This document shows positions 11,684 to 60,580 of a stretch of 64,000 nucleotides of DNA, piece by piece. The stretch is from Chiloscyllium plagiosum (taxonomy: Eukaryota). Below the pieces are notes generated by a model. It had not been told where the DNA came from. It worked only from the letters and a program-made list of their open reading frames with translations, and did not search any database. The translations under genes were made by a program, and so were the position numbers. Every line of letters begins with the position of its first letter. Positions within the stretch are counted from its first letter, which is position 1. The stretch lies in contig NC_057752.1 in NCBI RefSeq assembly GCF_004010195.1, positions 3,585,639 to 3,649,638 of the forward strand, written 5' to 3'.

Positions 11684-11899
11684 GAGGAGAAAGTGAGGGC
11701 TGCAGATGCTGGAGATCAGAGCTGAAAATGTGTTGCTGGAAAAGCGCAGCAGGTCAGGCAGCATCCAGGGAACAGGAGAATCGACGTTTCGGGCATAAGC
11801 CCTTCTTCAGGAAGAAGGGCTTATGCCCGAAACGTCGATTCTCCTGTTCCCTGGAGGCTGCCTGACCTGCTGCGCTTTTCCAGCAACACATTTTCATCC
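11684..11899. mobile_element. Penelope-derived fold-back mini-element, 12-bp TSD
   Basis: ctgtagtcaaat at 11672-11683 and 11900-11911. Near-perfect inverted repeat centred near 11809. Confidence 0.9.
11778..11813 (-). ncRNA. Minimal hammerhead ribozyme motif
   Basis: Minus strand reads ttc CTGAAGA a gggc ttat gccc GAAA cg TC gattc. Helix I is short. Confidence 0.65.
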
Positions 11900-12659
11900 C
11901 TGTAGTCAAATAGCTCACTACGTCTGACGGTCAAGGCCACACTCAAAGAGTGGGCATCTTAACAAGAGGCCAGTGTCGACAGCGCTGGATTTCAGTAAGT
12001 AACATGTGTTGGAGACAGGCTTGCTCTGCCAGATGGGAGGTGAATATTAGACGGTAGGGAAATGCACTTGAGTGTTTCGGCTCTGTCTCCCTCGAAGCCG
12101 TTCGTTTCGTGCAAACCTGACGCTTTGAATCACTGGACACAGATCAAACAAACTGGCTCATATTGATTGTGCCCATGTTGCACACAGTAGTGTAGGTCTC
12201 CTTAATGTGCAGCGTGAAACTAGCTTTCAGAAGGTGTCAGGTAATTGCACCTTCAAACAGCAGCCTGTGGCCTGGGGAGCAGGGAACCAAATGTGGATTC
12301 CAATCAGCTTTACAAGATCAATGTCTAGCGCGCAGTTAAAGCTAATCCTTTCTCACATCCCTGAACAAAAGCTGCAGCAATCGGTCTTGACTGAAATGAG
12401 AGAGAGAGAGAAAAAAGCACATAAATCTCCAAACTCCGGCCATTAGCAACTGCACTGGACGGGGGCCTGTGGAATCAAAACACAATCTGAAAACAATAAA
12501 ATAATCAAAGGCCTTATCAGAGGAGCTTTCCCTGCCTTCGGTCGAACAAAATGGACACACTGCTGTCAAGGGTCTTGGGATTAATTTCCCCTCAGAGGAC
12601 CAAGAGAAAATTATGCCGGAAATGGAATAAACTGGACTTGCAGTGTAGGAGAAAGTAAG

Positions 12660-13292
12660 ACCTATCGGAAAGATGTTGTGAAACTTGAAAGGGTTCAGAA
12701 AAGATTGACAAAGGATGTTGCCAGGGCTGGAGGATTTGAGCTATAGGGAGAGGCTGAATAGACTAGGGCTGTTTTCCCTGGAGCGTTGAAGGCTGAGGGG
12801 TGACGTTATGGGAAAAGCCCATCAGGTTCACAAATGGAAGGAAACTGTCATCCTTACATAGTCTGGCCGAAATGTGACTCCAGACCCACAGCATGGTTGG
12901 AGGATTTGAGCTACAGGGAGAGGCTGAACAGGCTGGGGCTGTTTTCCCTGGAGCGTCAGAGGCTGAGGGGTGACCTTTTAGAGGTTTATAAAATTATGAG
13001 GGCCATGGATAGGGTAAATAGACAAAGTATTTTCCCTGGGGTCGGGGAGTCCAGAACTAGAGGGCATAGGTTTAGGGTGAGAGGGGAAAGATATAAAAGA
13101 GACCTACGGGCAACTTTTTCGCACAGAGTGTAGTACTTGTATGGAATAAGCTGCCAGGGGAAGAGGTGGAGGCTGGTACAATTGCAACATTGGGTGCTGG
13201 CAGGTGGGACTAGATTGGGTTGGGATATCTGGTCGGCATGGATGGGTTGGACCGAAGGGTCTGTTTCCGTGCTGTACAGCTCTATGACTCTA
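12660..13292 (+). mobile_element. CR1 3' fragments (with a short SINE piece near 12810-12892)
   Basis: LSYRERLNRLGLFSLERQRLRGDL.EVYK and a (ctatgact)n tail. Confidence 0.85.
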
Positions 13293-13293
13293 T

Positions 13294-13395
13294 GACTGCA
13301 GATGCTGGAGATCAGAGGCAAGAGTGTGGTGCTGGAAAAGCACAGCAGGTCAGGCAGCATCTGAGGAGCAGGAGAATCGACGTTTCATCAGGAAA
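13294..13395 (-). mobile_element. Penelope terminal fragment with hammerhead helix II deleted
   Basis: ctgcagatgctggagatcag...gaatcgacgtttcatcagg. Confidence 0.7.
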
Positions 13396-14264
13396 GACTT
13401 TCAATGTACCAACCTCATTCTCACAAAGCTCTCCGGCACAACTGACCCTCAAGCCAAGTGCTGTCCACAAACTCCATTTTATGCCTTCAGTTGCCCTTCC
13501 AACATTTTGAAACCATTCATTCTCAGGATGGGGGTGGGGAGTATCAGTGGCAAAGCATCATGAATTTCCCATCTCTAGTTGCCCTTCACAAGGTGACGGT
13601 GAGCCACGTTCTTGGACTATTGCGTCTGTGTGGTGTAGGTATATCTCCCATGGTTCGATAACAGAGTGGCTTGCTGGAACCATTTCAGAGTCAACCACAT
13701 TTCTGTTGAGATAGGTTTAGGGCACGATCAGGTAAGAAAAGCAGGTTTCCTTCCCCTGTACACCCAGTTGGATTTTGACAACAACCCAGTCGTTTCGTGG
13801 CCATTATGAACGGGATGAGCCTTTTATTCCAGATTTATTAATCAGTTGGGAAATGGACAATCAAGCTCAGATAACCCTGCAAGAGTGAGTAATCTCAAAA
13901 AAAAACTGAGTCCCGGGTGAAGCTACACGGCCTCTATGCACTGAAAAAAACACCAACAGTATTCCCCACAAGAGCGTGCAATCATGAAGGCAAAAGGAAT
14001 GGTGAAGGAAGTCTAATGTTGGTATGATGCCAGGCGATACATCCCGATGACTGGTGGCCTTAAACCCATCATGGGTTTGTGCGGTAGCTGTGTGCAAGCA
14101 ATCATCTGATCAGGCTCACCTTCATTATCATCATTGCTACACAGCAGTGCCAGAGTCCACATGCCAACCAATCAGCACTCTTCTCTTAAGCAGTATAAAA
14201 GTTGGTTTTCCCCTTACATTTGTATTTTTGTAAACTGCGAGACAAACAAAATACTCAAGTTATA

Positions 14265-14820
14265 GAGTCTTAGAGATGTACAGCACAGAGACAGACTCTG
14301 TTCCAACCCATCCATATATCCCTAAATTAAGGATTAGATTCCCTACAGTGTGGAAGCAGGCTCTTTTGCCCAACAAGTCCACACCGACCCTCTGAACAGC
14401 AGCCCACCCAGACCCATTCCCCCCTGACTAATGCACCTAACACTACAGGCAATTTAGCATGGCCAATTCACCTGACCTGCACATCATGGACTGTGGGAGG
14501 AAACCGGAGAACCCGGAGGAAACCCACGCAGACACGGGGAGGAGAATGTGCAAACTCCACACAGACAGTTGCCCAAGGCGGGAATTGAACTCAGGTTCCC
14601 AGCCCCGTGAGGCAGCAGTGCTAACCACTGAACTACCATGCCACCTTCTAGCCCCATTTGCCAGCACTTGGCCCATATCTCTATTTATATACCCGTCCAA
14701 ATGCCTTTTAAATGCTGTAACTGTACCAGCCTCCACCACTTCCTCTGGCAGCTCATTCCATACACGTACCACCCTCTGTGTGAAAAAGTTGCCCCTTAGG
14801 TCCCTTTTATACCTTTCTCA
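14265..14820 (-). mobile_element. HE1-like SINE (about 14332-14643) nested in a CR1 3' fragment
   Basis: Reverse-complement tRNA-like head (tggttagcactgctgcctcac...gttcaattccc), HE1 body and CR1 flanks. Confidence 0.85.
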
Positions 14821-16099
14821 AGTTCTCTGCCATCAAACTACTATCTTTCATTCTTTTCCTTTAATTGGTATGTGTGTGCAAGTTTCGAAGGGTATATATT
14901 TATTCTGTCATGTTTCAAACTGTTAATAAACTTTATTAAGTCTTGTGTTACAGTAAGTCAGTGGGTTCATTGTTTGGTGAAGAAATCTAGTTGGTGGATT
15001 CGCATTCTGAAACATTTAGATTGGTGTATGGCCATTATTTATAACCAGGTAAATCCCCTTTTTTTAAAACACGCTTTGTGGAATAATGGGACATTCCTCC
15101 TCTATCAGTTGTCACATGAGTATAAGAAGCACTTGTTCACTAAGTGCACACCTCTTCCCCCTAATGCTTTTGGATGGTGATAGAAACGCACAAAATATGA
15201 ACTGAATGAATTACTGACTTCATAGGAAAAGAACTGATAAAATGCTTTAATTTACAGTGAGGAGGTGGTGTAAAATGATTTGCAGTGTGCTACTGCTTGG
15301 CTGCTTCTTTTCTGCAATGTTTTTCTTCGTCGGAGTGTAAAGTGACTTACGTTTTCATCAACTGCGTGTGACAGCTGCTGGAATGATTCTGTCGCACACA
15401 GCCATACAGTTGTGGCTGGAGACAACATATCACTCTGACCCGTGAGTCAACAGCTCAATATTCATGGCCAAGTCTTCAGGACGGAAGGGCTCGTCCTGCT
15501 ACCTTGCCAAGTCTTCACTCCCACGGGACTGCAAGGATGGCATTCACGTATGCGTACATATTTCTCCAGACTCAATCTCAATCAGAGGAATCGCCCTTTT
15601 CAGGGGCGGGGTTCGGTTGGCTGGGTTGCAATGTCAAGGTCAACAGCGTCAAGGTTCCTGCCTTAGCTGAGGTCACCAAGCAGGTCCCCACCTCCTCAAC
15701 CCCTCCCTTCGCCTGAGGCATGTTGAGCCTCAGGTTAAACCACGAGCAATCGTTTCTATCTGGAATAGGAGAGCAGCCCGACGACGGCAACTTTACCTGT
15801 ACCTTACATTTCTTCGGAGTGAATAATGCTTGGAAGAAGTCAAACACCTCACCCTTATTCTCTCTCCTCCCCCACTGAGTCCTTTCCGGCGCATAGCTCC
15901 GTAGAAATCGAGCGTCCACCCACCCAATCATCTTTGTATAAAGAGCTTGAACAGCAAGCATAACCAATCCGTTCGGCCAGTCACTTATCACAGTAGACTC
16001 CATGACATTGACCCCAACCCTACCCTTCTATTTCTGGAACATTCTCAAGGTTAAAAGCAACCTTATGAGGACTAAGTGTTCCTTCAATTCCAGCCTCTT

Positions 16100-18640: not shown

Positions 18641-18770
18641 CCCCTTGGCTTGTACTCATCAAAACGATGACATGGCAAACAGACTTGGGGGAAAAAAAAG
18701 AGATAACAGTCAAAAATTAAGGAAAAACAGAAATTGCTGGAGAAACTCAGTCGGCCAGCCATCATCTGTG

Positions 18771-18807
<37 letters not shown>

Positions 18808-27335: not shown

Positions 27336-28104
27336 ACTAATACTTCAAACCAGACTCCTTGGCTTCAATGTATTGCCGCTGGCTAACTCAACGGGGAAGG
27401 GAAGGGAGTAGGGGAGGAAACAGTAGCTCACAACCAGAGATACCCTGTGGCTACTTACGCAACATTTGGTGGACTGCCCTAAAAATGTTTACAGGGTGCT
27501 CGGAAAACCCAGACAGTAAACCCGGGGGAGTTAGGTCAACGTTCTTCACGAAGAATGGTACAGTTTGTTGGAAACTGTTTCATGTTACTCAGCATCCAAG
27601 AAAAATATGACTTGTACATTTACAGAAGTAACCTGAATTAATAAGAAAAGGAACTTTCTGACAAAACACGTACGCCAACATAATACATTTTCCGGATCAA
27701 AATATTTCACAGAGGCGGCCATTTCCTGCCAACAACAACCCACGCTAGGAGTCGAAGAGCCTCTTGATCCTTTTTTTTCTTGGGGAGGTGTCAGGATTTG
27801 TTGGAGAAAGGAACACTGGCCCCTTCTTGATCTTGACCAGATACCGGCACCACCAAACTTCAGGGGAGATTTCTTACTCGTTCAGGGGATGAGGATGTCG
27901 CTGGCTAGGCCATCCCACAGGGCAGTTAAGAGTCAACCCTATAGGTCTGGAGTCACATGTAGGCCAAGGCCAAGTCAGGATGGCAGTTCCCTTCCTTAAA
28001 GGGCATTAGAGAGCCAGGTGGGCTTTTCCCAACAGTCAGCAATGGATTCATGTTCATCATTAACCTTGCAATTCCAAGGTCTTAACTGAATTCAAATTCA
28101 ACGT

Positions 28105-28308
28105 TTGTGAGAAGATTTGTAGCTCGGGTGCTCGTTGTTGTGGTTCTGTTCGCCGAGCTGGGAATTTGTGTTACAGACGTTTCGTCCCCTGTCTAGGTGA
28201 CATCCTCAGTGCTTGGGAGCCTCCTGTGATCGTTCCTCCAGCATTTATAGTGGTTTGTCTCTGCCGCTTCCGGTTGTCAGTTCCAGCTGTCCACTGCAGT
28301 GGTCGGTA
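28105..28308 (-). mobile_element. Poseidon-type Penelope terminal fragment inserted in a DeuSINE-like SINE (about 27870-28400)
   Basis: agaagatttgtagctc...cgccgagctgg is shared with 58365-58420. Carries a hammerhead motif. Confidence 0.7.
28173..28212 (-). ncRNA. Minimal hammerhead ribozyme motif (second family)
   Basis: Minus strand reads gca CTGAGGA t gtcacct agac aggggac GAAA cg TC tgt. Confidence 0.65.
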
Positions 28309-29339
28309 TTCCACCATGGCCGGATTTGAACCCTGGATCCCAAAAACCACGATGTGGGCCGACTGGATTTAACAGCCCAGGGATAATACCACACGGCCAT
28401 TGCCTCCCTACATACATATGTTGAACTTGTAAGTGATGACTGAGAAAATGCTTCCTAAACCCACCTCCATTTTGGATTGTTCCTCAGATCTGATCCCTCA
28501 CTGACATTTCAGTGGCTTCAGACATTTAGAGGTCAGAACCTTTCGCAGGAAAGACTCATCATTATGGGTGAATTTTTCACCTTTTTTCTCGAAACAAACC
28601 CACCAGCATTTTATCACGATTTCTATGAATAACAGTGTAATTATCAAGTAATTACAACATATTAATAGATAATAATACCTTTTGTCATTGCATACATTAA
28701 CCAGAGTAATTGCACATTAATAACATCATTAGTCATGGGACTTAAAAGAATACGGATTTTTTTCTGAATAAACAAAACAATTAACACACAGAAATAACGT
28801 CCTACTCAAACTCAACCATAAGTTCTCAGTTTTCCCTTAGCCTCCCCACTTCACAAACAAATATTTCAAACCTAATCTTAAGGGGGAATTGGTCGAGAGG
28901 ACCAGGACAGGAAGTCTAGTGACTTTGGTAAGACTGAATGTGAAATTTCGATCTTCCCACAGCAGGTCATGATGCAGAGATGAGGTCAGCAGCGGTTTTG
29001 AGGCACGTTGCACATTGGGCAGCCTGTGATAAGTTCCTCCTTGTAATGTATGCCATAAATACCCATTAGCTCAAAACCAGTTTCCAACATAAGGCCTATC
29101 TTCAAAATGAAGGCAATGGTGCACAAGGATCTTGTGGGCACCTGGTTCCCCATTGTTTATAAAACTGGCTTTGCGCACTTATGTGTGAGAGGTCAGTGGT
29201 TTTCCGTGTTGAACTCAGCACCACAAGGAGACCAGCAGGAGAGAGGATTCCTGCATGGAAGCTTGGGACAGGCAAAGGTGAGTCAGTAGGTGGGGTTGTG
29301 GAGTGGGGTCAGGACAGGAAGACAGTCCCAGGAGAGGAC

Positions 29340-32883: not shown

Positions 32884-33768
32884 TGTTATGGTCCAGACCT
32901 TCAAATCCTTAACGGCATCTTGTTTTAAAGGCCAATATAATGTGCTGTGTTCTAGACGCAGTTCGTTTGGTCATACTACTCAATGTTAAGCAAAACACAA
33001 CTTATTTAAACGTTATGTTAAAATACAACAAAAGAAAACATAACTTGATGGGAAAATGTAACAGAATAATACATCTAGTAACTGTTACCAATTAACTGTT
33101 CCAATACAGTAACATCCCATTAACACACCCCCTTGGCAAAAAGGCAAATTCAGAGAAATAGATTTTGTTTCACATGCAATCTGGCACCTAGGCAGAGCTG
33201 GCTAGTGTAGACCCACAAAGCAAACAGTTGAGAGTGTGTTGCTGGAAAAGCACAGCAGGTCAGGCAGCATCCGAGGAGCAGGAGAATCGACGTTTCAGGC
33301 ATTAGCCCTTCATCAGGAATGAAGGGCTTATCTGCCTGACCTGCTGCGCTTTTCCAGCACCGCACTCTCGACTCTGATCTCCAGCATCTGCAGTCCTCAC
33401 TTGCTCCACAAAGCAAACAGCTTGGGTTTTTTTCAAAAAGACTGGAACAATAGAAGCAGCTTGTCTGCACGCTTAGAAAGCTGAGGAAGAGGAACTCCAG
33501 CTTTTGGCTGTAATTGAGAGAGGGACAAATAGCTTCCACTTCTTCAAGCGCACAATAGCAACTGCTGAAACTAACAACTAGAAATCCTGGTCTGTGAGAG
33601 CTGGCTACACCCAGCCAGGCCGCTTCTACTGTTCAAACCTTACAAAACAAAACCCAAGACCTCCAAAGCTGTTTACTTTATGGGTCTACACTCACCAGCT
33701 CTACCTTAAAACCTCTCTTCCATACAAAAAAGGACAACACAACCTCTTAAAGTGACAGCATCATCACA
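32884..33768. mobile_element. Solo LTR (Gypsy-like), TG...CA
   Basis: Starts tgttatggtccagacc and ends catcatcaca. Flanks are ccag/ccat. Homologous to 56470-57217 (catcccat..ac.c.cccttggcaaa..gcaaattcag). Confidence 0.7.
33228..33405. mobile_element. Penelope-derived fold-back mini-element, 15-bp TSD, with hammerhead motif (33286-33320, -)
   Basis: ccacaaagcaaacag at 33213-33227 and 33406-33420. Minus strand reads attc CTGATGA a gggc taat gcct GAAA cg TC. Confidence 0.85.
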
Positions 33769-37664: not shown

Positions 37665-39205
37665 ATCTCAATGTAGACTCGAACTCCCGGCCTCAGTGTG
37701 GGAATGGAACTCCCGGCCCCAGTGTGGGACTGGAACTCCCCCCCTCAGTGTGGGACTGGAACTCCCGGCCCCAGTGTGGGACTGGAACCACCGGCCTCAA
37801 TGTGGGACTGGAACTCCCGGCCTCAGTGTGGGACTGGAACTCCCGGCCTCAGTGTGGGACTGGAACTCCCGGTCTCAGTGTGGGACTGGAACTCCCGGCC
37901 TCAGTGTGGGACTGGAATTCCCGGCCTCAGTGTGGGACTGGAACTCCCCCCCTCAGTGTGGAACTGGAACAACCGGTCTCAGTGTGGGACTGGAACTCCC
38001 GGCCTCAGTGTGGGACTGGAACTCCCCCCCTCACTGTGGGACTGGAACTCCCCCCCTCACTGTGGGACTGGAACTCCCGGCCTCAGTGAGGGACTGGAAC
38101 TCCCGGTCTCAGTGTGGACTGGAACTCCCCCCCTCAGTGTGGGACTGGAACTCCCGGCCTCAGTGTGGGACTGGAACTCCGGGCTTCAGTGTGGGACTGG
38201 AACTCCCCCCCTCAGTGTGGGACTGGAACTCCCCCCCTCAGTGTGGGACTGGAACTCCCGGGCTCAGTGTGGGACTGGAACCCCCGGCCTCAGTGTGGGG
38301 CTCGAACTTCCGGCCTCAGTGTGGGACTGGAACTCCCGCCCTCAGTGTGGGACTGGAACACCCCCCCTCAGTGTGGGACTGGAACTCCCGGCCTCAGTGT
38401 GGGACTGGAACTTCCCTCTCAGTGTGGGAGTGGAACTCCCCCCCTCACTGTGGGACTGGAACTTCCGGCCTCAGTGTGGGATTGGAACTCCCCCCCTCAG
38501 TGTGGGACTGGAACTCCTGGCCTCAGTGTGGGACTCGAACTCCCGGCATCAGTGTGGGACTGGAACTCCCGGCCTCAGTGTGTGATTGGAACTCCCCCCC
38601 TCAGTGTGGGACTGGAACTTCCCTCTCAGTGTGGGAGTGGAACTCCCCCCCTCACTGTGGGACTGGAACTTCCGGCCTCAGTGTGGGATTGGAACTCCCG
38701 GCCTCAGTGTGGGACTGGAACCCCCGGCCTCAGTGTGGGACTGGAACTCCTCCCCACAGTGTGGGACTGGAACTCCCGGCCTCAGTGTGGGACTGGAACT
38801 CCCCCCCACAGTGTGGGACTGGAACTCCCCCCCTCAGTGTGGGACTGGAACTCCCCCCCTCAGTGTGGGACTGGAATTCCCGGCCTCAGTGTGGGACTGG
38901 AACTCCCGGCCTCAGTGTGGGACTGGAACCCCCGGCCTCAGTGTGGGACTGGAACCCCCGGCCTCAGTGTGGGACTGGAACCCCCGGCCTCAGTGTGGGA
39001 CTGGAACCCCCGGCCTCAGTGTGGGACTGGAACCCCCGGCCTCAGTGTGGGACTGGAACCCCCGGCCTCAGTGTGGGACTGGAACCCCCGGCCTCAGTGT
39101 GGGACTGGAACCCCCGGCCTCAGTGTGGGACTGGAACCCCCGGCCTCAGTGTGGGACTGGAACTCCTCCCCACAGTGTGGGACTGGAACTCCCGGCCTCA
39201 GTGTG
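37665..39205. repeat. 26-bp minisatellite (cagtgtgggactggaactcccggcct)n, about 59 units, runs into the gap
   Basis: Directly visible tandem array. Confidence 0.98.
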
Positions 39206-39999
39206 NNNNNNNNNNNNNNNNNNNNNNNNNNNNNNNNNNNNNNNNNNNNNNNNNNNNNNNNNNNNNNNNNNNNNNNNNNNNNNNNNNNNNNNNNNNNNNN
39301 NNNNNNNNNNNNNNNNNNNNNNNNNNNNNNNNNNNNNNNNNNNNNNNNNNNNNNNNNNNNNNNNNNNNNNNNNNNNNNNNNNNNNNNNNNNNNNNNNNNN
39401 NNNNNNNNNNNNNNNNNNNNNNNNNNNNNNNNNNNNNNNNNNNNNNNNNNNNNNNNNNNNNNNNNNNNNNNNNNNNNNNNNNNNNNNNNNNNNNNNNNNN
39501 NNNNNNNNNNNNNNNNNNNNNNNNNNNNNNNNNNNNNNNNNNNNNNNNNNNNNNNNNNNNNNNNNNNNNNNNNNNNNNNNNNNNNNNNNNNNNNNNNNNN
39601 NNNNNNNNNNNNNNNNNNNNNNNNNNNNNNNNNNNNNNNNNNNNNNNNNNNNNNNNNNNNNNNNNNNNNNNNNNNNNNNNNNNNNNNNNNNNNNNNNNNN
39701 NNNNNNNNNNNNNNNNNNNNNNNNNNNNNNNNNNNNNNNNNNNNNNNNNNNNNNNNNNNNNNNNNNNNNNNNNNNNNNNNNNNNNNNNNNNNNNNNNNNN
39801 NNNNNNNNNNNNNNNNNNNNNNNNNNNNNNNNNNNNNNNNNNNNNNNNNNNNNNNNNNNNNNNNNNNNNNNNNNNNNNNNNNNNNNNNNNNNNNNNNNNN
39901 NNNNNNNNNNNNNNNNNNNNNNNNNNNNNNNNNNNNNNNNNNNNNNNNNNNNNNNNNNNNNNNNNNNNNNNNNNNNNNNNNNNNNNNNNNNNNNNNNNN
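39206..39999. other. Assembly gap (N run)
   Basis: Run of N. Confidence 1.
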
Positions 40000-40835: not shown

Positions 40836-41108
40836 CCCAGGAGCAAGGACCACATTTTTATCTGATTCCCTGCCAGTGTAAATGAACTTCCAGCCATGCA
40901 GCCCAGTGCAGATTGATGTGGCTGTATGACTTCTTAATGAACCTTTTCTTTCCTGCACTGTTCCCAGAACCATCCGCTATCTTCACAGCTGTTCATTTCA
41001 ACCTGAAATGTGCCCTTTTTCTCCCAACTGCTTTCGACTGTATCTCCGTCACATTCTTTGTAAAAACAGAAGTTTACTCTCATCGTCCTTAACAATTAGT
41101 TCACAAGC

Positions 41109-41343
41109 TGAAACTTTATTGCTGGAACAGCACAGCAGGTCAGGCAGCATCCAGGGAACAGGAAATTCGACGTTTCGGGCACAGGCCCTTCTTCAGGATT
41201 CATTCCTGATTCATTCCTGAAGAAGGGCCTGTGCCCGAAACGTCGAATTTCCTGTTCCCTGGATGCTGCCTGACCTGCTGTGCTGTTCCAGCAATAAAGT
41301 TTCAACTTTGATCTCCAGCATCTGCAGACCTCACTTTCTCCTC
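41109..41343. mobile_element. Penelope-derived fold-back mini-element, 16-bp TSD, two divergent hammerhead motifs
   Basis: caattagttcacaagc at 41093-41108 and 41344-41359. Arms of about 90 bp are perfectly inverted. Confidence 0.92.
41213..41248 (+). ncRNA. Minimal type I hammerhead ribozyme motif
   Basis: attc CTGAAGA a gggc ctgt gccc GAAA cg TC gaat. Helix I attc/gaat, helix II gggc/gccc, GUC site ending at 41244. Confidence 0.75.
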
Positions 41344-41759
41344 CAATTAGTTCACAAGCCCCAATCTAAAATGTCAGTGTTCAATAGAAGGAACCAACTG
41401 CATAAGATTTAGTGAGAAAGAGGTACAGCACCAGGCCCATATCCCTCCAAACCCTTCCTATTCATACACCCATCCAGATGCCTTTTAAATGCTGTAATCC
41501 AAGCTGAACCAAACATTCAGAAAACGTGAGAATTTGAATTTACTTAAAAGAAAACACAACTGGTGTCACTGAATGTCAGCGAGATGCTCTTGGATTGTGA
41601 CCTAAAGAGGGGGAGTCAGAGTGAGGGGAACGTATGGTGAGGGTGCCCAGAGCCAAAGATATAGGTTGCTCACGGTGCTGAAGGAGCGATTGGCGTGTCA
41701 AATGGGTGTTAATGGAGCGAAAGGAAGAAAACGTCCACACTGCTCAGCGCAAAGTCGAC

Positions 41760-42535: not shown

Positions 42536-44112
42536 TTCGAGGGGTAGCTGTCAAGTTTGATCAGAATTGGATCTTCTATTTACAGTGGTATATGGATAGG
42601 TATAATGCCCAAATAAAGGGATTATATTGAAATTGTCTCCTGCATCTTGGAGAAAAATAGTGGATTCCTGTGACACATGTATCAGGACCCTATATTCTTT
42701 GAATAGAAGATAATCACATTCAGAATGAACCCAAGTAGACAATGCTGCATGACATTTTAAGTTGTTGGAATTTGATTTCCTTCTGCCTTTTCTCTGCTCT
42801 CAGTGAGTGAATGAAACATTGTCCAATTTGGACACCCAGTGACCCAACTAATCTTCCCAGGGGAAGGGTATCATAAGGTTAGATTCAGAGAAAAGCTCCC
42901 TCTACACTGTCCCCCATCAAACACTCCCAGCACAGGGACAGCACAGGGCTAGATACAGAGTAAAGCTCCCTCTACACTGTCCCCCGTCAAATAGTCCCAG
43001 GACAAAGACAGCACAGGGCTAGATCCAGAGTAAAGCTCCCTCTACACTGTCCCCCATCAAACACTCCCAGGACAGGGACAGCACGAGGTTAGATACAGAG
43101 TAAAACTCTTTCTACAATGTCCCCCGTCAAACACTCCCAGGACAGAGACAGCACAGGGCAAGATACAGAGTAAGGCTCCCTCTACAATGTCCGCCATCAA
43201 ACAGTCCCAGGGACAGGGACAACACAGGGTTAGATACAGAGTAAAGCTCGCTCTAAACTGTCCCCATCAAACACTCCCAGGACAGGGACAGCACAGGGCT
43301 AGATACAGAGTAAAGCTTCCTCTACACTGCCCCCATCAAACAGTCCCAGTGACAGGGATAGCACAGGGTTAGACACAGAGTAAAGCTCCCTCTCCACGGT
43401 CCCCCATCAAACACACCAAGGACAGGGACAGCACAGGGCTAGATACAGAGCAAAGCTCCCTCTACACTGTCCCCCATCAAACACTCCCAAGACAGGGACA
43501 GCACAGGATTAGACACAGAGTAAAGCTCCCTCTACACTTTTCCCCATCAAACACTCCCAGGACAGGGACAGCACACGGTTAGATACAGAGTAATGCTGCC
43601 TCTACATTGTCCCCATCAAACACTCCCAGGACAGGGACAGCACGCGGTTAGATACAGAGTAAAGCTCCTTCTACACTGTCCCAATCAAATACACCCAGGA
43701 CAGGGACAGCACGGGGTCAGATACAGAGTAAAACTCTTTCTACACTGTCCCCCATCAAACACTGCCAGGACAGGGACAGCACGGGGTTAGATACAGAGTA
43801 AAACTCTTTCTACACTGTCCCCCATCAAACACTCCCAGGACAGAGACAGTGCGGGGCAAGATACAGAGTAAAGCTCCCTCTACAGTGTCCCCATCAAACA
43901 CTCCCAGGACAGGGACAGCTCAGGGTTAGAGACAGAGTAAAGCTCCTTTTACACTGTCCGCATCAAACACTCCCAGGACAGGGACAGCACGGGGTTAGAT
44001 ACAGAGTAAAACTCCTTCTACACTGTCCCCCATCAAACACTGCCAGGACAGGGACAGCACGGGATTAGATACAGAGTAAAGCTCCCTCTACACTGTCCTC
44101 CATCAAACACTC

Positions 44113-45031
44113 GAGGAGAAAGTGAGGTCTGCAGATGCTGGAGATCAAAGTTGAAACTTTATTGCTGGAACAGCACAGCAGGTCAGGCAGCATCCAGGGA
44201 ACAGGAGATTCAACGTTTCGGGCACAGGCCCTTCTTCAGGAATGAGCAGAGAGTGTTCAGCAGGAGAAGATAAAAGGTAGGGAGGAGGGACTTGGAGGAG
44301 GGGAGTTGGAAATGTGATAGGTGGAAAGAGGTCAAGGTGAGGGTGATAGGTCGGAGTAGGGTGGAGGCGGAGAGGTCGAGGAGAAGACTGCAGGTCAGGA
44401 AGGCGGTGCTGGGCTGGAGGGATTCGGCTGAGACAAGGTGGGGGGAGGGGGGATGAAGAAACTGGTGAAGTCCAAGTTCATCCCCTGTGGTTGGAGGGTT
44501 CCCAGTCGGAAGATAAGACGCTCCTCCTCCGACCGTCGGGTTGTTGTGGTTTGGCGGTGGATGAGTCCAATGACCTGCATATCCTCGGTGGAGTGGGAGG
44601 GGGAGTTGAAATGCTGTGCTACAGGTTGGTTGGGTTGGTTCGTCCGGGTGGCCCAGAGGTGCTCTCTGAATCGCTCCGCAAGTAGGCGGCCTGTCTCCCC
44701 AATATAGTGGAGGCCACACCGGCTGCAGCGGATGCAGTAGGTGATGTGGGTGGAGGTGCAGGTGAATCTGTGGCGGATATGGAAGTTTCCTTTGGGGCCT
44801 TGGAGAGAAGTGAGGGGGGAGGTGTGGGCGCAAGTGTTGCACCTCCTGCGGTTGCAAGGGAAGGTGCCGGGAGTGGAGGTTGGGTCGGTGGGGGGTGTGG
44901 ATCTGACAAGGGAGTCGCGGAGGGAATGGTCTCTACGGAAAGCTGATAGGGGAGGGGAGGGAAATATATCCTTGGTGCTGGGGTCTGTTTGGAGGTGGCG
45001 GAAGTGACGGCGGATGATGCGCTGTACATGG
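44113..45031 (-). mobile_element. 5'-truncated Neptune-type Penelope element with open GIY-YIG endonuclease frame (44395-45031) and 3' pLTR
   Basis: FPCNRRRCNTC...ITYCIRCSRCGLHYIGETGR.LAERFREH...VAQHFN...EERLIFRLGTLQPQGMN. TSD aacactc at 44106-44112 and 45032-45038. Confidence 0.93.
44208..44243 (-). ncRNA. Minimal hammerhead ribozyme motif in Penelope 3' pLTR
   Basis: On the element sense strand: attc CTGAAGA a gggc ctgt gccc GAAA cg TT gaat. Confidence 0.72.
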
Positions 45032-46664
45032 AACACTCCCCAGGACAGGGACAGCACGGGGTTAGATACAGAGTAAAGCTCCCTCTACACTGTCCCCCCA
45101 TCAAACACTCCCAGGACAGGGACAGTGCGGGGCAAGATACAGAGTAAAGCTCTCTCTACACTGTCCCAATCAAATACACCCAGGACAGGGACAGCACGGG
45201 GTTAGATACAGAGTAAAGCTCTCTCTACACTGTCCCAATCAAATACACCCAGGACAGGAACAGCACGGGGTTAGATACAGAGTAAAACTCTTTCTACACT
45301 GTCCCCATCAAACGCTTCCAGGACAGGGACAGCACGGGGTCAGATACAGAGTAAACCTCTCCCTCCACTGTTCCCAACCTTGGAAATGTCCATTTTCCCT
45401 TTTCCATTTCCATCAATGAGTGGCTGCAAGCTGAATCGGTCATGGTTGTATTCCCCCCAGACTGCCTGAGCTCAGGATCGCAGCTGTCCCCTTCTCATTG
45501 GCAAAACTCTACTTTATAGAGTCAGCGAGAGACAATCAAATTTAAATTTGATCACATTCTATATTGCATTAAAGAGGCATGAATAATGCTTTGCATGGCT
45601 TTCCCCGATCCTCATGCAACAAATGCAGCCCATAAAAATCATATCACCCCAGAGAGGCCTTCCTCTATCTGCACAGCAGACAGGACACCATAAAAGTTGC
45701 CGTCACCTTGGCAGAGGAAGTGACATTTTGATGTACAGTGCTTGTTAAGCACAGCTTCCTTGTTCAAATGGGCTTGCAGTCTGTCTTTGTTGGACCATTG
45801 GAAGCACTGTCACATTTCAATAATTAAACGGTCCACCGACTGTGGGGATTATCTGCGGCAGCACAGTGAGACAAATCCTGCGTGGAAATAACAAGGAACT
45901 GTTTTCAGGATCAGCAGAAACAGGGGAGTGGGTTGCTGGCCCGAGGGGAGAACACTGCGTTGGCAGAGGGCTGAATTCAAGAGGTGTTTCCGCTTAATGA
46001 GGACAGGGGAGCCTGCAAAGGGATAGGTCGGGCATTATGGGAAACCAGAGGCTGACACTCACTGGGCTCTGTCTGAATGCACAATACATCAACAGAGACA
46101 GCTGCTCGGAATACATTCTACTTTTCCTCACAACTTTGAGGTCTGACTGTGCACTTCTGTGCAATGAGCAGCCGGCAAGAAATTGTCCCGGCGTTTAGAA
46201 GGAGCATGTTTCAAATGACACGACAGCAAGAAAAAGCCTTTTCGCTCACCCGTTCATAAAGGGCCCCATCTGGAGCCCTCGTGTGCTGATGACCACCCAC
46301 CCATGTTTTTTTTTCTCGTCAGCCTTTGCACATCTCCGTTCACCTTGTTGGTACACAGGCCACTGTCATCGGCTCAAGGCATCACTTAATCCAGGTGCAA
46401 ATGCTTGTCACACCAAACGGGATCAGGATTTGACAGCTTTCGGCAGGGAATTAGGGAAACACATCAAGGAAAATTGGTAAGCGGGATATGGGCAAAGAGC
46501 AGGAGAGTGGGACCAACTGGAAGAGCCAGATGGACTCCAGGGGCCAAACAGACATCTTCAGTGCTGTACAACAGTTTCCTATGATTCTACCACATATTTT
46601 GAGGCTTTTAAACCAGGTGGAAGTCAAGTTCGATGTCGGGTGATGTTTCTGAACGTGTTGAGAC

Positions 46665-49570: not shown

Positions 49571-50432
49571 CGAAAGTGAGCACTGCAGATGCTGGAGACG
49601 AGAGTCGAGAGTGTGGTGTTGGAAAAGCACAGCAGGTCAGGCAGCATCCGAGGAGCAGGAGAATCGATGTTCCGGGCATAAGCCCTTCATCAGGAATGAG
49701 GCTGGCAGTCTCGGGGGTGGAGAGATAAACGGGAGGGTGGGAAGGAAGATGGACAGGTAGGACAGGTCTTGAGGACGGTGCTGAGCTAGAAGGTTGGAAC
49801 TGGGGTAAGGTGGGGGGAGGGGAAATGAGGAAACTGGTGAAGTCCACATTGATGCCCTGGGGTTGGAGGGTCCCAGGTGGAAGATGAGGCGTTCTTCCTC
49901 CAGGCGTCAGGTGATTAGGGAGTGGCGATGGAGGAGGCCCAGGACCTGCATGTCCTCAGCAGAGTGGGCAGGGGAGTTGAAGTGTTAGGCCACAGGGCAG
50001 TAGGGTTGGTTGGTTAGTGCGGGTGTCCCAGAGGTGTTCTCTGAAGCGCTCTGCGAGTAGGTGTCCTGTCTCGCCAATGTAGAGGAGACCGCATCAGGAG
50101 CAATGGATACAGTACATGACTTGTGGAAGTGCGGGTGAAATTTTGATGTGGACGTGGAAGCTTTCTTTGGGACCTTGGACGGAGGTGATGGGGGAGGTGT
50201 GGGTGCAGGTTTTGCAATTCCTGCGATGGCAGGGGAAGGTGCCAGAAGGGGAGGGTGGGTTGTTAGGGGGCATGGACCTGACCAGGTAGTCACGGAGAGA
50301 ACGGTCTTTACGGAAAGTGGATAGGGGTGGGGAGGAAAATATATCCCTGGTGGTGGAGTCCATTTGTAGGTGGTGGAAATGGTGGAGGATGATACGATGC
50401 ATACGGAGGTTGGCGGGGTGGAAGGTGAGGAC
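49571..50432 (-). mobile_element. Degenerate Neptune-type Penelope 3' fragment
   Basis: TFHPANLRMHRIILHHFHHLQ...GTFPCHRRNCKTC, frameshifted GIY-YIG and a mutated hammerhead (GGAA) near 49663-49697. Confidence 0.9.
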
Positions 50433-52004
50433 CATTTTGAAAAAAAGAGTAAGGAGGTTTTCCCCAGTGTTTTGGTCAATATTTATCCCTCCAGTAAAAA
50501 CAATCATTACCACATTACCATCTTTGGGAGCTTGCTCTGTACAAATTGGTTGCTGTGTTTCCTAACTACAACAGCGCCTCCTGTTCAAAAGTATTTCATT
50601 AGGTGTAAAGTGCTTTGAGCTATCTGGTGATCATGGAAAGAGTTATGGAAATGCTACCATTTGCCGACTGTGGCATTTTCCCACCTCATGTTTGTCTTCA
50701 TAACTCTGGCTATGTCTCAACAAATAATCCAGTCGCTTTTAAAGTATCCTTGGATATTTCAGCCAACGTACAAGGGCACCATCTGAACACAAGTTACTTT
50801 TGACCAATTTTCCACATTCTTCAAACAAACCTTGGAAGTTTTATTTTGTTAGATATTAGGGTGGGGGAAAGGTAATTAAAACTGGGAACAGATCTTCAGC
50901 CAAGTGCTTAGTATTCACCAGATACTTTGCCTGAAAGCAACTTTTTTTTTCATCAAATGGTCTGTGTTGTAAAGATTTATCACATCGACTTCCTCATTTT
51001 GTCACACAGAGACATTCTGATGAATATTTTGTGACAAGTAATGTCACATTTTAGAAGATTGTGGAACTTGGGAGATCAGAAGAGGCGAGAATCCAAAAAG
51101 AAATGGCTTCAAAAGCACTTATTCCATAATCAGACAATTCAATTTGAATGGCTCATTTCCCTTGAAATTGGCTATTTTTGATTTTTAATGTTATTTATGA
51201 ATCACAAGTTATCACTCACATTCTTGAAGTCATGTTCTGGTAATTTCTTTTTGCTGCAGATATCGAAGTTGAACTGGGAATTTTGATTAATGCTTGCAGC
51301 TCATACTTATTTTGTGGTCTGAGTCATGCCAGGCTGATACCAAGTCAACCTTTAGTGATTGCTGTGGGTAGCCAGTGTTCAAAGTAAGTGCCTTCCATCT
51401 CACCTCACCCCTTTCCCCATCTTCTGCAGGCTTCCCCCAAGAGAAACTGGTCAACTGACAAGGACGGAGAACGCCTTGAATAATCGCACGAGGCAGGGAA
51501 GGGTTCCATGGCTCTTTAAGCAGAGGGGTCACAGGGCAGAGCACTCGAAATGTGATTGGAATGTGGTTGCAGATTCCTCTAGCCAAAATGACAGGTATTA
51601 ATATCATACCGTCTGCGCTCCAGGAATTAAAAGCTGAACTTAGCAATTTTTCGGAGCCGCTTTTGTTGGTAACAATCATAAACGAGAAGTCATGGTAATG
51701 ATGATTAGATTTCAAATTGAAATCTATTTGTGGAGATCTGCTTCTGTGGCAATGCAGCCAAGTTATTATGTGGTAATCTGAGAAATGATATACTGCTTCT
51801 GTGGAGCTGGATAAGAACACTGGTCTATCGCAGCCATTCAGGATAAGCTGACCCTTCATTATTCACAATTCAAAATGGCCGACACTCCCTTTCGTACAGT
51901 GGAAAATGAGGCAACTCACCATTCAATTGTTTGACCCATCAATATCAACAGTTCAAAAACCCACTCGCGGTTAGACATCTTGTCCATGGATAGAGGATAG
52001 AAAG

Positions 52005-52086
52005 CTAGAAGTTCTTGGAAAAGCTCAGCCTCAGTGGAGAGAAATCAGAGTTAACGTTTCGGGTCCAGTGACCCGTGCTCAGAACT
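52005..52086 (-). mobile_element. Penelope-like terminal fragment (third family) with degenerate hammerhead
   Basis: Minus strand reads agtt CTGAGCA c gggtc actg gaccc GAAA cg TT aact (52049-52086). A related decayed copy lies near 18720-18840. Confidence 0.6.
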
Positions 52087-54461: not shown

Positions 54462-54670
54462 AGAGTGTGGTGCTGGAAAAGCACAGCCAGTCAGGCGGCA
54501 TCCGAGGAGGAGAAGGGTCAATATTTCGGGCCTGAGCCCTTCATCAGGAGCCTGTCATCATTCGGGCTCCAGCCCGAAACGTCAATTCTCGGATGCTGCC
54601 CGACCTGCTGTGATTTTCCAGCAACACACTCTCGATTCTGATCTCCAGCATCTGCAGACCTCACTTTCTC
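54462..54670. mobile_element. Older Penelope-derived fold-back mini-element, 14-bp TSD (1 mismatch)
   Basis: ctaatttt(a/c)caaac at 54448-54461 and 54671-54684. Confidence 0.8.
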
Positions 54671-55587
54671 CTAATTTTCCAAACACTGGGTCAACGGTCT
54701 AACATCCAGATAGCCTCCAACCCCAACACACTTTTCTTGATGGATTGCACTTTGCAACATGCGGCATCTACTATCGAACAGGATATGACAAGAGCTCACA
54801 GCTAGTCATGACTGACATCTGAAATACCAGGCCGCCTGTCAACACAAATGCACAAATGCGAAGTCTGAGTTTGCTTTATCGAGAAGTCAGCTTTTCTACC
54901 TTAATCTGCTCTGCGCACGCGTAATGTGCCAGGAGTCAAAACGACAGGAGAATGAAGAGAAATTAAATAAGAATTGCAGACTGATAATGCCAGGCATCAG
55001 CCTCGCTACCATGGCAACAAATACAGCTCCTGTGGGTTATAATGGACATGGGTCTCTGAAGCATCTAACAATTGATTTGAATTTCAAACGTAGCACAAGA
55101 TTTTACAAGGTACTTCAAGAGAGGAAGAGGCGTGACCAAGCCTGCCGTAGCTTCTGTGGAAATAAGTCTTTAAAGGACGAAAATCATCGAAGAAATAAAA
55201 TAAAAAGCTCCGATAATTTCATGTCAGCACATGCTTCGGAAAATATTACAGCTGTGGCTCTCTTGGTATCTCCAGTGTCTCTTTGAAATCTGCCAAATGT
55301 TTGTCTTCATGTAACCGTCCACGAAAGCTCAGATGTCCACACATTTCTCATGCTAATTACCCTTGAGGTCAATGGATGTGCTTGTCCATTTCAAGGGGCA
55401 GTTAGATGTCGATCACATTGCTGTGGGTCTGGAGTCACATATCAGCCAGACCGGATAAGGATGGCAAATTTCCTTTCCAAAAGGACATTGCTGAACGTGG
55501 CCATTTTGTTGGGACTCGCTCCATTGCCCAATGGAGGACACTTCAATGGAATCCTTCAGAAGTGCCGCCATCAAATTGTCCAATATA

Positions 55588-56199: not shown

Positions 56200-56469
56200 A
56201 ATATATCCATTACCAAGAAAATCTGGGCACAAATCTGGGAAAATCACATTTAAGAATCCATTCTATCTCTGCCTTTGAGGGATATTCCTGTATGTGAAGC
56301 ACATTCCCCATGTTAAATGGAATGTTGCTGAACAGATAGACTCATAGAGCACGGAAACAGACCCTTCTGTTCAACTCTTCCATGCTGACCGGGTATCCTA
56401 ACCGAATCTAGTTTTTAGGGACATCGTGATCAGTTCATGGTCACCATTAATGGGATTAGCTTTTAATTC

Positions 56470-56909
56470 TGTTATGGACCAGACCAACCTCTCTCAAAGC
56501 ATATCCAGAAGATAGTCTCACTTTTACCTTCTTTAACAGCAAGTACAAGAGGCTGCATTCCAGATGTGATTCGATTGACCACAGTACTAGGTTTTAACCA
56601 GAACACACTTAACTCTTCACCACAGTTAAAAACAAACCAAAAAAGAAGATTTGGCACAACTTTAACTCTGTTAAAATACTTAACAATTCCTTATTATTTA
56701 ACTATGAATCATCAAGTGTTCCAATGTAGCAGCATCCCATAAACGCACCCTTGGCAAAGGCAAATTCAGCAAAGCAGATTCTCACTTGTGATCTCCTCCA
56801 GTCCAGGAGAAGGAACATTGACAGAATAAATCCAGCAGCAGACAGAGAGTTCAAGCCTTCTGTAGTAGCAGAGAGAGAAAGAGAGAGAGAGACAGAGACA
56901 GAGAGGGAA

Positions 56910-56940
<31 letters not shown>

Positions 56941-57217
56941 CAGAGAGAGAAACAGAGAGAGAGAGAGAGCTGTAACTTGCAGTTCAACTCTAAAACCCCC
57001 CAACGTCAACAACTGAAAGCAACTCCGAACCCCCTGGGTCTCTGTGTGAGCCTGACTCCACCCATTCATGCTTGTCTTATCTAATGTTTTTTTAAAAACC
57101 CAAAAAGCTATTGACTCTGCCATCCATGGAGCAGACGCCTCGGCGCCAGGTTTACAACATTCCTCTGCAAGAGGAGCAGGAAAGAACAAATCCCTCTTCA
57201 AGGTACATCTCATCCCA
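56470..57217. mobile_element. Solo LTR (Gypsy-like), TG...CA, 4-bp TSD, with an internal (GA)n microsatellite at 56871-56969
   Basis: attc at 56466-56469 and 57218-57221. It interrupts a SINE at ttttaattc|caaat. Confidence 0.8.
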
Positions 57218-58364
57218 ATTCCAAATCTCATTGAATTTAAGTGCATCCCAGTGACTGTGGTGGGATTCGAACCCATGTGCCCATAGCTTGAGCCTGACTT
57301 GATGGAAGGATCATGAGCTCATGATACTACCGTACACCCCATATCGTAGCCTTGAGCCTGTGAGAATGGAGTGCCTTGCAGACAGCCTGAGGGTAGCATC
57401 CTTGTAGCACTGTCGTGAGGATGCCCAGAAGTCGAGATCTGCTTAGCCAGGAGGTGTCCATTAAGCATCAGGGCCAGGAGAGAAGTAGCTGCACAGCAAG
57501 GCAGAGGCAATGGAAAATTGGAATAGAGAGGTACAGCAACTTCCAATGCCTGGCTTACACAACATCTGCGAAGACTGTTTTTTTTTTGCAACACATGCAT
57601 GGCTTGGAATGCAGTCCACAGCCTACAAGAGCAGGACACAGCATTTGGGAATACATGCGCAACCAGCTCCCTTATGTACATCGACAGGATGAAATCAACA
57701 ACTCACCGAAAGAAGGTGTAACCAACAAAAGGCTACTTGAATGTTACATCCCAAGGATGAGGTGTCATGAGATAGCAAAGCTACTTTCCACTTGGGGACA
57801 TATTTTCTTTAAATACACAACACAGTGGCATCTGACGGACAAGTGAGATCGGACAAAAAGAAGGAGCTTTCCCTCGTTTGAGAGTGCTAATGCATTGTGC
57901 ATCACAGGACTACAGGCGCCACCAGAGATTCCTTACGCCAATGTAATGTTGTGGCGATGATGCAAAAGGTCGCAATGGTAGCCTCAGTTCAAGAGGCAAC
58001 TGTTACACTGATGAAGCAAACATATTGGTGTGGAGAATGAACTGTATGCTGCAACCTTCTCCAAATACATGCTGCACTTTAGGACTTAATTTCACCTTCT
58101 GTGGAAGCAACTACAGTCAATTATTCATTGTTACATGTTGCGAATCATTTGCAAGGAAATAGATACTGATAGACCTATCTACCTTTACCACTGCAAGTCC
58201 GGGAATGGAAAAATGGCCAACTAAAACATATAAATACACTGACTCATCCATCTCCTTAACTGTATCTGGTATCGAAACAGATTTTGGAAATGTTGCAGCT
58301 TAATTGATTGAAATTTCATACTTGCTCATCAAAGGCGTAGCAGAAATGCACGTGAGTGAGTTTT

Positions 58365-58860
58365 AAGAAGATTTGTAGCTCAGGTTGAGGTTCTGGATGT
58401 AGGTTTGCTCGCTGAGCTGGAAGGTTCAATTTCAGATGTTTCGTCACCGTACTAGGTAACATCTTCAGTGAGCGTCCGGACGAGGCACTGGTGGTATGGC
58501 CCGCTTTCTATTTATGTGTTTAGGTTTCCTTGGGTTGGTGATGTCATTTCCTGTGGTGAAATCATTTCCTGCGCTGTTGTCAATTCCGGTTCTTTCTCTC
58601 AGGGGGTGGTAAATGGGGCAGTTGGAATGAAAACGACATGACCCTCTCTCACTAGTATCCTTATGTACACATGAGGAAGGACACCACTTTAACTGGGACA
58701 ACACATCCACCCTAGGATAAGCCAAACAGAGACACGCACAAGAATTCCTAGAAACATGGCATTCCAACCGGAACTCTATCAACAAACACATCGACTTGGA
58801 TCCCATTCACCACCCCCTGAGAAGAAGAACAGGAAATGACATCACCATAGGAAATAATGT
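58365..58860. mobile_element. Poseidon-type Penelope fragment with inversion; hammerhead motif at 58432-58471 (-)
   Basis: The plus arm translates KRHDPLSLVS...GHHFNWDNT...EFLETWHSNRNSINKH. The minus arm reads tca CTGAAGA t gttacc tagtac ggtgac GAAA ca TC tga. Confidence 0.75.
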
Positions 58861-58989
58861 CATGCGACTAACATGAAAAAATATCATGGGTGATGGAAAG
58901 AAAAATACCATTCAGTTGTGTGTAAGAGCACTTCTTGGCAGAAAAGAAGAAAAATGTGAGAAACAAAACAGAAGTGTCCCACAGGAATA

Positions 58990-59595
58990 GCAGGTCAGAG
59001 GCTAGGAATACTGCAGTGAGTAACTCACCTTCTGACCCCTTGCAAAGCCTGTCCACCATCTCCAAGGCCCAAGTCAGGAGTGTGATGGAATACTCCCCAC
59101 TTGCCTGGATGGGGGCAGCTCCAACAGAAGCTTGACACCATCCAGGAGAATGCAGCCCCGCTTGATTGGCCCCACATCCACAAACATCCCCTCCCTCCAC
59201 CACCGACGCTCAGTAGCAGCAGTGTGTACTATCTACAAGATGCCCTGCAGAAATTCACCAAAGATCCTCAGACAGCACCTTCCAAACCCACAATCACTTC
59301 CATCTCGAAGGACAAGGGCAGCAGATACATGGGAACACCACCCCCTGCAAGTTCCCCTCCAAGCCACTCCCCAGCCTGACTTGGAAATATATCGCCGTTC
59401 CTTCAGTGTCATTGGGTCAAAATCCTGGAACTCCCTCCTTCCCTCCCTCAGGGCATTGTGGGTCAACCCACAGCACATGGACTTCAGCGGCTCAAGAAGG
59501 CAGCTCACCCCCACTTTCTCAAGAGGGGCAACTGGGGTTGGGGCAATAAAGACTGGGCCCAGCCAGTGACACCCACACCCCACATAATGAATTGA
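58990..59595 (+). mobile_element. L2/CR1-group LINE 3' end
   Basis: KAQVRSVMEYSPLAW...SLHHRRSVAAVCTIYK...GSKSWNSL. Confidence 0.8.
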
Positions 59596-60429
59596 AAACT
59601 ACAAACTGGTTACGGAGGTAGGTCTGTCAGAGCGGTATGGCTTTTACTCACTGCCTACACTTTGTGGTTACAGCAGAGTTATTCAAAAACAGAAGCCATG
59701 CGATAGAATGGTGTCTTTAACGGGACAGCATTTTGAAACTAGCCGAGATATTTTCGGCACGGGAGGGAAGTCGTTTCTCCGAAGTGTCAGTGTTCCACCA
59801 GTCTCAAAGCTGTTTAATCGAAACCTATTTCTCTGTACCTATGAAGGCTTTTCTGAGACGCAGAGGTTCATTCAGATTCAACAATCACTTGTGGCACTGC
59901 ATTCCCTAAGTGTAACAAGGGTTTGCATATAAATATCTCCTTTGATCCTGGATAGTAATACTAATGAGGAAATGTCTCCTGTGCTGGGTGAAATAAGACT
60001 CACAGCTGATTGAAACACACAAGTACAGGCGATTGTCAATCATTGCTTAAAGTGATGCACAAAACAAAATGGTGAAATGGATAGATTTGGGAGTTACAAA
60101 GGACGCAGACCCACAAAGTCAAATGGCTGGGTGAAAGGGTAAAAATTGAATTTAGCCGCAGAAAATGTGCACCTTGCTGAACAGGAGTAAGGGGCCTCAG
60201 TGCTCAGTGACAGAAGTTCTCCAAAGCAGGTTCGGGAACGCACACGAACTGGGCAGAGGGATTCGCAGCTGCAGACCGTGACATTGAAGTGAGGCATCCC
60301 CGGTGTTCCTACATTTAAAATGATCCCACGCACACGCCGGGGAACACAGGTTTGCTTCTGGAGACTGTTGTGAAATTGGCCAACTGACCGATGGGAACAA
60401 GGACATTTGGTGCCAGCCTTTTGTTCTGC

Positions 60430-60580
60430 CAGAGGTCAGCAGTCACACGCCACCAGATTCGCGTCCAAGAGGTTTATTTGAAGTCCCAAGCTTTCGGAGC
60501 GCCGCTCCTTCGCCGGGTGAAGGTGTTGTGTGTCTTCCGACCTTGTCCACCCCAGTTCAACACCGGCACCTCCACATCAT
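60430..60580. mobile_element. Penelope-like fold-back fragment (fourth family), decayed hammerhead at 60485-60519 (-)
   Basis: Minus strand reads cac CCGGCGA a ggagc ggc gctcc GAAA gc TT. Confidence 0.55.

Follow-up and report, generated by a model that had tools for sequence, protein, structure and literature searches.

Hammerhead motifs in the end repeats of four Penelope-like element families of Chiloscyllium plagiosum: a known motif class with a very large, mostly fossil load

Introduction

Penelope-like elements (PLEs) with an endonuclease encode a reverse transcriptase (RT) followed by a C-terminal GIY-YIG endonuclease, and their 5'-truncated copies carry an inverted arm and a tail (PMC8557442). 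Minimal type I hammerhead motifs have been described in PLEs, including Neptune and Poseidon elements, with the consensus NNN CUGANGAH G..C GAAAN palindrome NU H NNN (PMC4209133). In the excerpts of that work on which we draw, the motif comprises the CUGANGA box, an extra base between positions 9 and 10.1, the pair G10.1-C11.1, GAAA, a palindromic 15.2-16.2 and a short helix I. A genome can hold several consensus families of it, with changes that compensate each other and multi-family covariation; it is present in thousands of copies per genome, and in truncated elements that are mostly single or opposite-strand copies. Here we analyse a stretch of 64,000 nucleotides from the shark Chiloscyllium plagiosum (assembly GCF_004010195.1, contig NC_057752.1, positions 3,585,639 to 3,649,638; hereafter the window) together with samples of the whole genome. 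An original prediction, made from the letters of the window, had seen in it eight hammerhead motifs at the ends of four Penelope families, here called A, B (with B1 and B2), C and D. The motifs are like the described ones in all these respects and the published consensus fits them, so that the pattern is not new.

In this study, we show that the motifs are minimal type I hammerheads in the end repeats (pseudo-long terminal repeats, pLTRs) of four GIY-YIG PLE families. They belong to a known motif class, to which they add new family members and a very large, mostly fossil load. We hold it to be very probable that the scattered copies decay neutrally after insertion, the fold likely being selected only in the source elements.

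Results

The prediction that the motifs are Penelope ends was confirmed at loci chosen by protein. A family motif lies downstream of the GIY-YIG frame on the same strand at 24 of 30 loci of family A, 27 of 30 of family B and 24 of 30 of family D (sets counted by hand, each including the query's own locus). For family C the link between frame and motif was found at two loci; in a DNA search, all 40 scored matches span the frame end to the motif, with a query that itself held the motif. At locus L283 (family A) a single frame of 893 amino acids contains RVT_1 (E 6e-8) and GIY-YIG (E 3.5e-4) matches, with the motif about 160 nt behind it, and at L352 (family D) a frame with an RVT_1 match below the cut-off (E 6e-6) runs into the endonuclease. 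A and D thus show the one-frame architecture of RT and C-terminal GIY-YIG, and B and C yielded only the 3' part of their frames. A Pfam search of two family B frames gave no match, and family B was identified through its similarity to A.

Contrary to the original prediction, the families are not unrelated. Between majority regions of the endonuclease, identity is 56% for A and C, 34% for A and D and 33% for C and D; B shares 30-35% with the others over shorter stretches. The tails of A and C share a reading frame, with MLPDLL in both. A CX2-5CxxC linker, which marks Neptune (or Nematis) and is lacking in Penelope/Poseidon (PMC8557442, in the passages available), is present in A, C and D, in C as read from the majority translation of old copies, and absent from B. 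By this linker and these identities A and C are classed as sister Neptune-type families, D as a more distant Neptune type and B as Poseidon-type; the linker alone assigns the clade, and would also admit Nematis for A, C and D. The four are thus two sister families (A and C), a distant Neptune type and a Poseidon type.

Every sequence feature tested for membership of the PLE minimal type I hammerheads was found. CUGANGA, GAAA, U16.1 and H17 are present in all seven subfamily majorities (at least three copies each) and in 12 motif types, the latter having been collected on intact cores; all 11 core letters are intact in 53 of 70 protein-chosen copies. An unpaired extra base precedes helix II in 86 of 89 perfect-core matches of an unselected sample. 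The pair G10.1-C11.1 is G-C in 11 of the 12 types and G-U in the other. The palindromic tetramer 15.2-16.2, which stands alone without a real helix III, is ACGT in A, B and C and AGCT in D; it pairs in 11 of the 12 types, the remaining one having ACAT.

The core letters are fixed across subfamilies and helices I and II change in pairs. In the 12 types, which cover 239 of 348 distinct intact motifs and in which stems were anchored on the core letters, 91% of cells are paired; shuffles reached a mean of 57% and a maximum of 70% (none of 5000 attained the observed value), and a control with slid partners 19-41%. In helix I, the first position has C-G, A-U or U-A and the second U-A, C-G or A-U, and the third is a U-U in five of the 12 types, the most numerous A subfamilies included. 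An independent count on nine real copies of A, B and C gave 90% paired cells, a covariation score of 0.744 (0.272 in shuffles) and 25 cells changed on both sides, each unmatched in 500 shuffles; three of five measures exceeded the shuffles. The predicted change of stem sequence with retained pairing is thereby upheld by pair counting.

Genome-wide, a generic intact-core pattern, which requires no stem pairing, had 207,652 matches in 3.556 Gb, or about one per 17 kb, compared with 598 for the reversed pattern; 100 unselected stretches contained 64 matches in 974,767 bases. The motif load suspected in the original prediction is indeed very large, although its estimated density of one motif per 6-7 kb does not apply to intact cores. 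Family patterns matched 103,422 times for A, 30,697 for D, 19,677 for B and 1,360 for C, with no match for any control, and together make up 75% of the generic count. A quarter of the generic matches lies outside these four patterns. Stem variants beyond the four predicted ones occur at L135, L350, L191 and L201 (gagtc-gactc, a 12-base helix II region, a cca-tgg helix I). Published counts singled out as remarkable are about 4,000 in the coelacanth and about 9,000 in Xenopus (PMC4209133, excerpts). The load here is far above these vertebrate counts, in a comparison that is rough because the published descriptor differs and requires stems.

Mutations were divided into private and shared ones in a small sample, the 73 of 90 protein-chosen copies that could be located by their tail and were kept. 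Private substitutions hit the core in 8 of 730 cells and other non-CpG positions in 114 of 8200 (p 0.62). Shared variants numbered 0 in 30 core columns and 56 in 338 others (Poisson p 0.007). Neutral decay after insertion together with purifying selection on the source elements is the simplest reading. Private mutations strike core and flanks alike and inherited variants alone spare the core; the load is therefore a fossil one and not a set of 200,000 selected ribozymes, and a reading in which the scattered copies themselves are selected is not supported.

Most copies are stubs of 90-130 bases, whose 3' ends form two groups in A, B and D. An inverted arm lies just upstream in 108 of 184 short A arms, and flanking direct repeats were seen in three cases in the window; short stubs, inverted pairs and flanking direct repeats have all been described for PLEs (PMC8557442 and PMC11167929, passages available). 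Copies running from the tail into the 5' part of the frame were limited to two partial A cases (L183, L254), with none for B and D among the matches listed. Separately, long inverted pairs are common in B, with the junction in the coding region (L053, L183, L288), and the pairs of A and D are short.

The 5' ends were collected from 1.04 Mb of unselected sequence and 0.45 Mb of flanks, where 414 of 524 arms were kept and 110 dropped. Between -12 and +2 relative to C3 lie 94 of 225 ends in A, 27 of 74 in C and 36 of 87 in D, and in the next 28 bases upstream 3, 4 and 5, respectively. Within 3 nt of the cut site were found 11 of 225 (A), 1 of 74 (C), 1 of 87 (D) and 0 of 28 (B). The median end lies at -4 for both A and C, and at -7 for D (A vs D, p 0.002). 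The cliff is kept in young A copies of at least 95% identity to the reference (42 of 75 between -12 and +2, one between -40 and -13) and is also present in solo copies with flanking direct repeats. Stubs of A, C and D thus start at helix I in most cases, rather than at the cut site, and this position is probably the RNA start. Such a fixed 5' end is undescribed in the excerpts of PMC4209133 used here. Another accumulation of 5' ends, at +36/+37, proved an artefact of one tandem reference.

Further signs of a start site accompany the cliff. With what we take to be the initiator consensus, an initiator-like sequence is seen whose A falls at -4 in families A and C, and at -8 in family D. A TATA-like word is found about 30 nt upstream, in D as TATAAA at -40 or -38 in 21 of 23 copies and in C at -32 to -37 in 8 of 12; family A has only TTTAT at -35 (36 of 50). 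Directly before the junction stands a G in 12 of 14 A copies that start at -4 and in 3 of 3 D copies that start at -8; among these A cases several are inverted junctions, and two belong to the arms of a single insertion. A G before the junction is expected from copying of a cap. Family reads numbered 744 in about 1% of one RNA run (X20) and none in a second run (X21). Their ends showed no pile-up, which for reads from many copies speaks neither for nor against a start or a cut. In the passages available on Drosophila Penelope, a TATA-less start lies 46 bp before an intron (PMC2377424) that ends at helix I (PMC4209133). The clades thus differ in this arrangement.

In family B the motif lies within reading frames. 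In 26 of 28 copies the stop codon of the element's frame falls in helix II, at C3+14; A9-U-G10.1 reads ATG in all 28, and the frame that it opens stays open for 24 codons in 24 of them, the peptide being alike in B1 and B2 (window 28172-28213 and 58431-58472; L252-L280). From its position this ATG may be the start codon of the element's frame, as shown at the same position for the Poseidon element PAc of Anolis carolinensis (PMC11167929). According to the passages available, PAc has the same anatomy as B, with a frame that begins at stem II and C3 and G8 before the start codon, and its two internal priming sites and tail of 30-40 nt match the two 3'-end groups of A, B and D. From the cut site to the A of ATG there are 28 nt in B and, as stated, 26 bp in PAc, and unlike in PAc as described, the upstream frame of B also ends within helix II. 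Activity was shown for PAc alone.

Discussion

A number of observations weigh against our interpretation of a selected ribozyme fold and of an RNA that starts at helix I. Behind the covariation stand just four independent lineages. In the nine-copy count the six of ten pairs changed on both sides were reached in 129 of 500 shuffles and the further pair types did not exceed the shuffles (122 of 500); family D was left out of it because MAFFT misplaced D by one column, and was counted in the core-anchored analysis alone. Helix I of the commonest A subfamilies consists of only two pairs, a U-U and an A-U. Single copies fold no more stably than shuffles (z -0.02 to -2.35, one of eight below -2), and the predicted probability of an intermolecular helix III through the tetramer is at most 0.04; these weak predicted folds agree with the weak activity reported for PLE minimal hammerheads (PMC4209133, excerpts). 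Outside the core, some of the shared variants may be recurrent mutations or noise of the alignment. Family B has no 5' cliff (4 of 28 ends between -12 and +2, and 0 of 17 in young copies), and in C a junction G occurs in only 2 of 10 copies. Lastly, the motif of B overlaps reading frames and helix I of A, C and D overlaps an initiator-like sequence, and conservation may therefore partly have other causes.

How far do other explanations account for the motif and its load? That the matches arose by chance, or the covariation from a choice of motifs with pairing stems, has next to no probability: the sites had been picked for pairing and a loose scan does give chance matches (mean 1.91 per shuffle at two mismatches), yet neither touches the excess of intact cores over the reversed pattern, the empty controls of all four family patterns or the recovery of the motifs at loci picked by protein. 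It is very improbable, too, that host selection maintains many scattered copies as functional ribozymes. The sheer number of intact cores, the family sequence in an RNA run and a total substitution rate that is lower in the core than in the flanks in the three families tested (p 0.06-0.09 each) would suit such a role; against it, the core deficit sits in shared and not in private variants, intact cores drop with divergence (A 23 of 26, B 19 of 24, D 11 of 20), many stubs break within the core, and inverted arms would pair together and so hide the motif. A greater, though still low, probability attaches to the view that the fold is kept for another reason, as a binding site for the element's protein, an initiator or a start-codon context, with little or no cutting in vivo. 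In no family are 5' ends enriched near the cut site (within 3 nt), core mutants of the Anolis element leave insertion unaffected and none of its RNA ends were seen at the cut site (PMC11167929, passages available), and in B the ATG and the stop codon are nearly invariant. On the other hand, the same 11 core letters are fixed in the coding setting of B and the apparently non-coding one of D, the Anolis motif cleaves in the presence of protein, with rescue by C3G/G8C (PMC11167929), and cut RNA might just be unusable as a template.

For the 5' cliff we slightly favour the following reading, which the start-site signals suggest: in Neptune-type PLEs the capped RNA would begin with the hammerhead as its first 30-37 bases, helix I would serve with its 5' strand as transcription initiator too, and more than 100,000 stubs would be run-off copies of the uncleaved leader. 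Stalling of the RT, snap-back at the motif or alignment ends could instead create the cliff, a serious competitor to which we nevertheless give clearly less credence. It fits the frequent inverted arm just upstream of short A arms and the TCAT/ATGA and TTC/GAA seeds that straddle C3, and the references miss some old subfamilies; family B, with a motif and without a cliff, is a simple fit to neither reading. Stalling does not readily account for a cliff that persists in copies at least 95% identical to the reference and in solo copies with direct repeats, that moves with the initiator-like site from A and C to D, and that has a TATA-like word about 30 nt upstream in D and C, with TTTAT alone in A.

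In the mechanism that we propose, the motif would act in the element's RNA as a weak ribozyme that cuts after H17, and cutting would need either a partner copy, paired via the palindromic tetramer, or the element's protein, as the excerpts of PMC4209133 and PMC11167929 suggest. Internal priming by RT would take place at either of two sites in the tail; in families A, C and D, synthesis would continue to the RNA 5' end at helix I and run off it, so that the template would be uncleaved RNA. The very high copy number may be due to the location of the motif in the most-copied 90-130 bases.

As the motif and its covariation were known before, our contribution is four families and a very large number of copies. 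That number is useful mainly as material: one genome with more than 100,000 young copies could be used to test what function PLE hammerheads have. Already in this sample, selection on source elements can be told apart from the neutral decay of copies, and copying appears to use uncleaved RNA that starts at helix I. If so, the stubs would map, as fossils, where the RNA begins, and would show that the template is not cleaved RNA. This genome would also carry the largest hammerhead-motif load among those found in print. Neither hammerheads in shark PLEs nor a 5' end fixed at helix I were the subject of any paper found in a search that left most subscription papers and some supplements outside; supplementary file 2 of PMC4209133, the one file searched, has no match for 'shark' or 'Callorhinchus'.

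Features of the window

Each of the eight sites of the original prediction has a CUGANGA-like box, the extra base, a short hairpin, GAAA and a tetramer ending in U-H (Table 1); seven are on the minus strand, with 41213 alone on the plus strand. The window contains seven perfect cores, against a mean of 0.04 and a maximum of 1 in 100 dinucleotide shuffles. The motif thus stands at all eight sites, and three of them are damaged: the cores at 52049 (CTGAGCA) and 60485 (CCGGCGA, with one pair left in helix I), whose family-level forms in C and D are intact, and the palindrome at 58432. The change at 52049 is the one that abolishes cleavage of the Anolis motif (PMC11167929, passages available). An attc-gaat stem, attributed to all four A sites, is complete with four pairs at two of them (41217, 44239); at 33316 helix I is ATTC/GATT with U-U as its third pair, and at 11810 it is CTTC/GATT with two pairs. 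Both B sites have the motif; helix II of B1 contains an A-G mismatch as its fourth pair.

Table 1. Penelope-like element features of the window
Feature	Position	Strand	Details
Family A stub, inverted pair	11683..11896		motif 11779-11814 (-), C3 at 11810; + arm begins two bases inside the core; 12-base direct repeat on the flanks
Family B1 (Poseidon-type) 3' end	28096..28309	-	motif 28172-28213; element's stop codon in helix II, ATG at A9
Family A stub, short inverted arm	33229..33414		motif 33285-33320 (-), core intact, U-U in helix I
Family A inverted pair	41107..41345		two intact cores, 41213-41248 (+) and 41165-41200 (-); 16-base direct repeat on the flanks
Family A 3' end repeat	44112..44394	-	motif 44208-44243, then tail
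Family A PLE frame, 3' part	44395..45054	-	Cys-rich linker (C-x4-C-xx-C) and GIY-YIG endonuclease
Older, second A-type PLE 3' end, beyond the original prediction	49572..50402	-	broken GIY-YIG frame, decayed GAAA box
Family C stub	51981..52086	-	motif 52049-52086, G8 -> C; begins at first base of helix I
Older A-type inverted pair, beyond the original prediction	54466..54672		perfect core 54547 (-), tetramer ATAT
Family B2 3' end	58357..58554	-	motif 58431-58472, tetramer decayed to ACAT
Family D stub	60441..60580		motif 60484-60520 (-), two core changes; short inverted arm 60522-60580 (+)

With remnants counted, the window holds 23 family arms, more than the original prediction had listed, and most of these arms are remnants (23 of 29 rows kept; five were flanking repeats carried by the reference and one a sub-part). 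The PF01541 match of the family A frame is below the cut-off (E 9e-4), and C3 of the motif at 44208-44243 lies 158 nt past its last codon. An Rfam scan of the window with E up to 10 returned no hammerhead among 16 matches, and its microRNA-like rows are inverted arms.

Retrozymes of the non-LTR (non-long terminal repeat) kind are alike in having type I hammerheads derived from PLE end repeats (bioRxiv 10.64898/2026.07.22.740005, passages available). They are tandem units, whereas the copies of the window are single or inverted stubs, and none of its ten tandem-repeat rows has the motif as a unit. At loci L183, L254, L282 and L305, head-to-tail units of about 170-330 bases with the motif in each resemble non-LTR retrozymes or partial tandems. 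Stubs of one family are found in or beside the end of another at L081, L011, L301 and L350 (A in C, A beside D).

A minisatellite of 69-70 bases (42877-45377) encloses the PLE piece 44112-45054 and continues on both sides of it. At 37676-39999 a 26-base unit is repeated 59 times up to a 794-base N gap, with long spurious open frames as a result, and at 62694-63999 an A-type inverted pair without a motif adjoins a 53-base tandem array of 22 copies. Much of the window consists of fragments of the long interspersed nuclear element (LINE) type and dispersed short repeats; these repeats include 600-1853 (-) and many shorter pieces, and one LINE-type fragment has a weak RVT_1 match.

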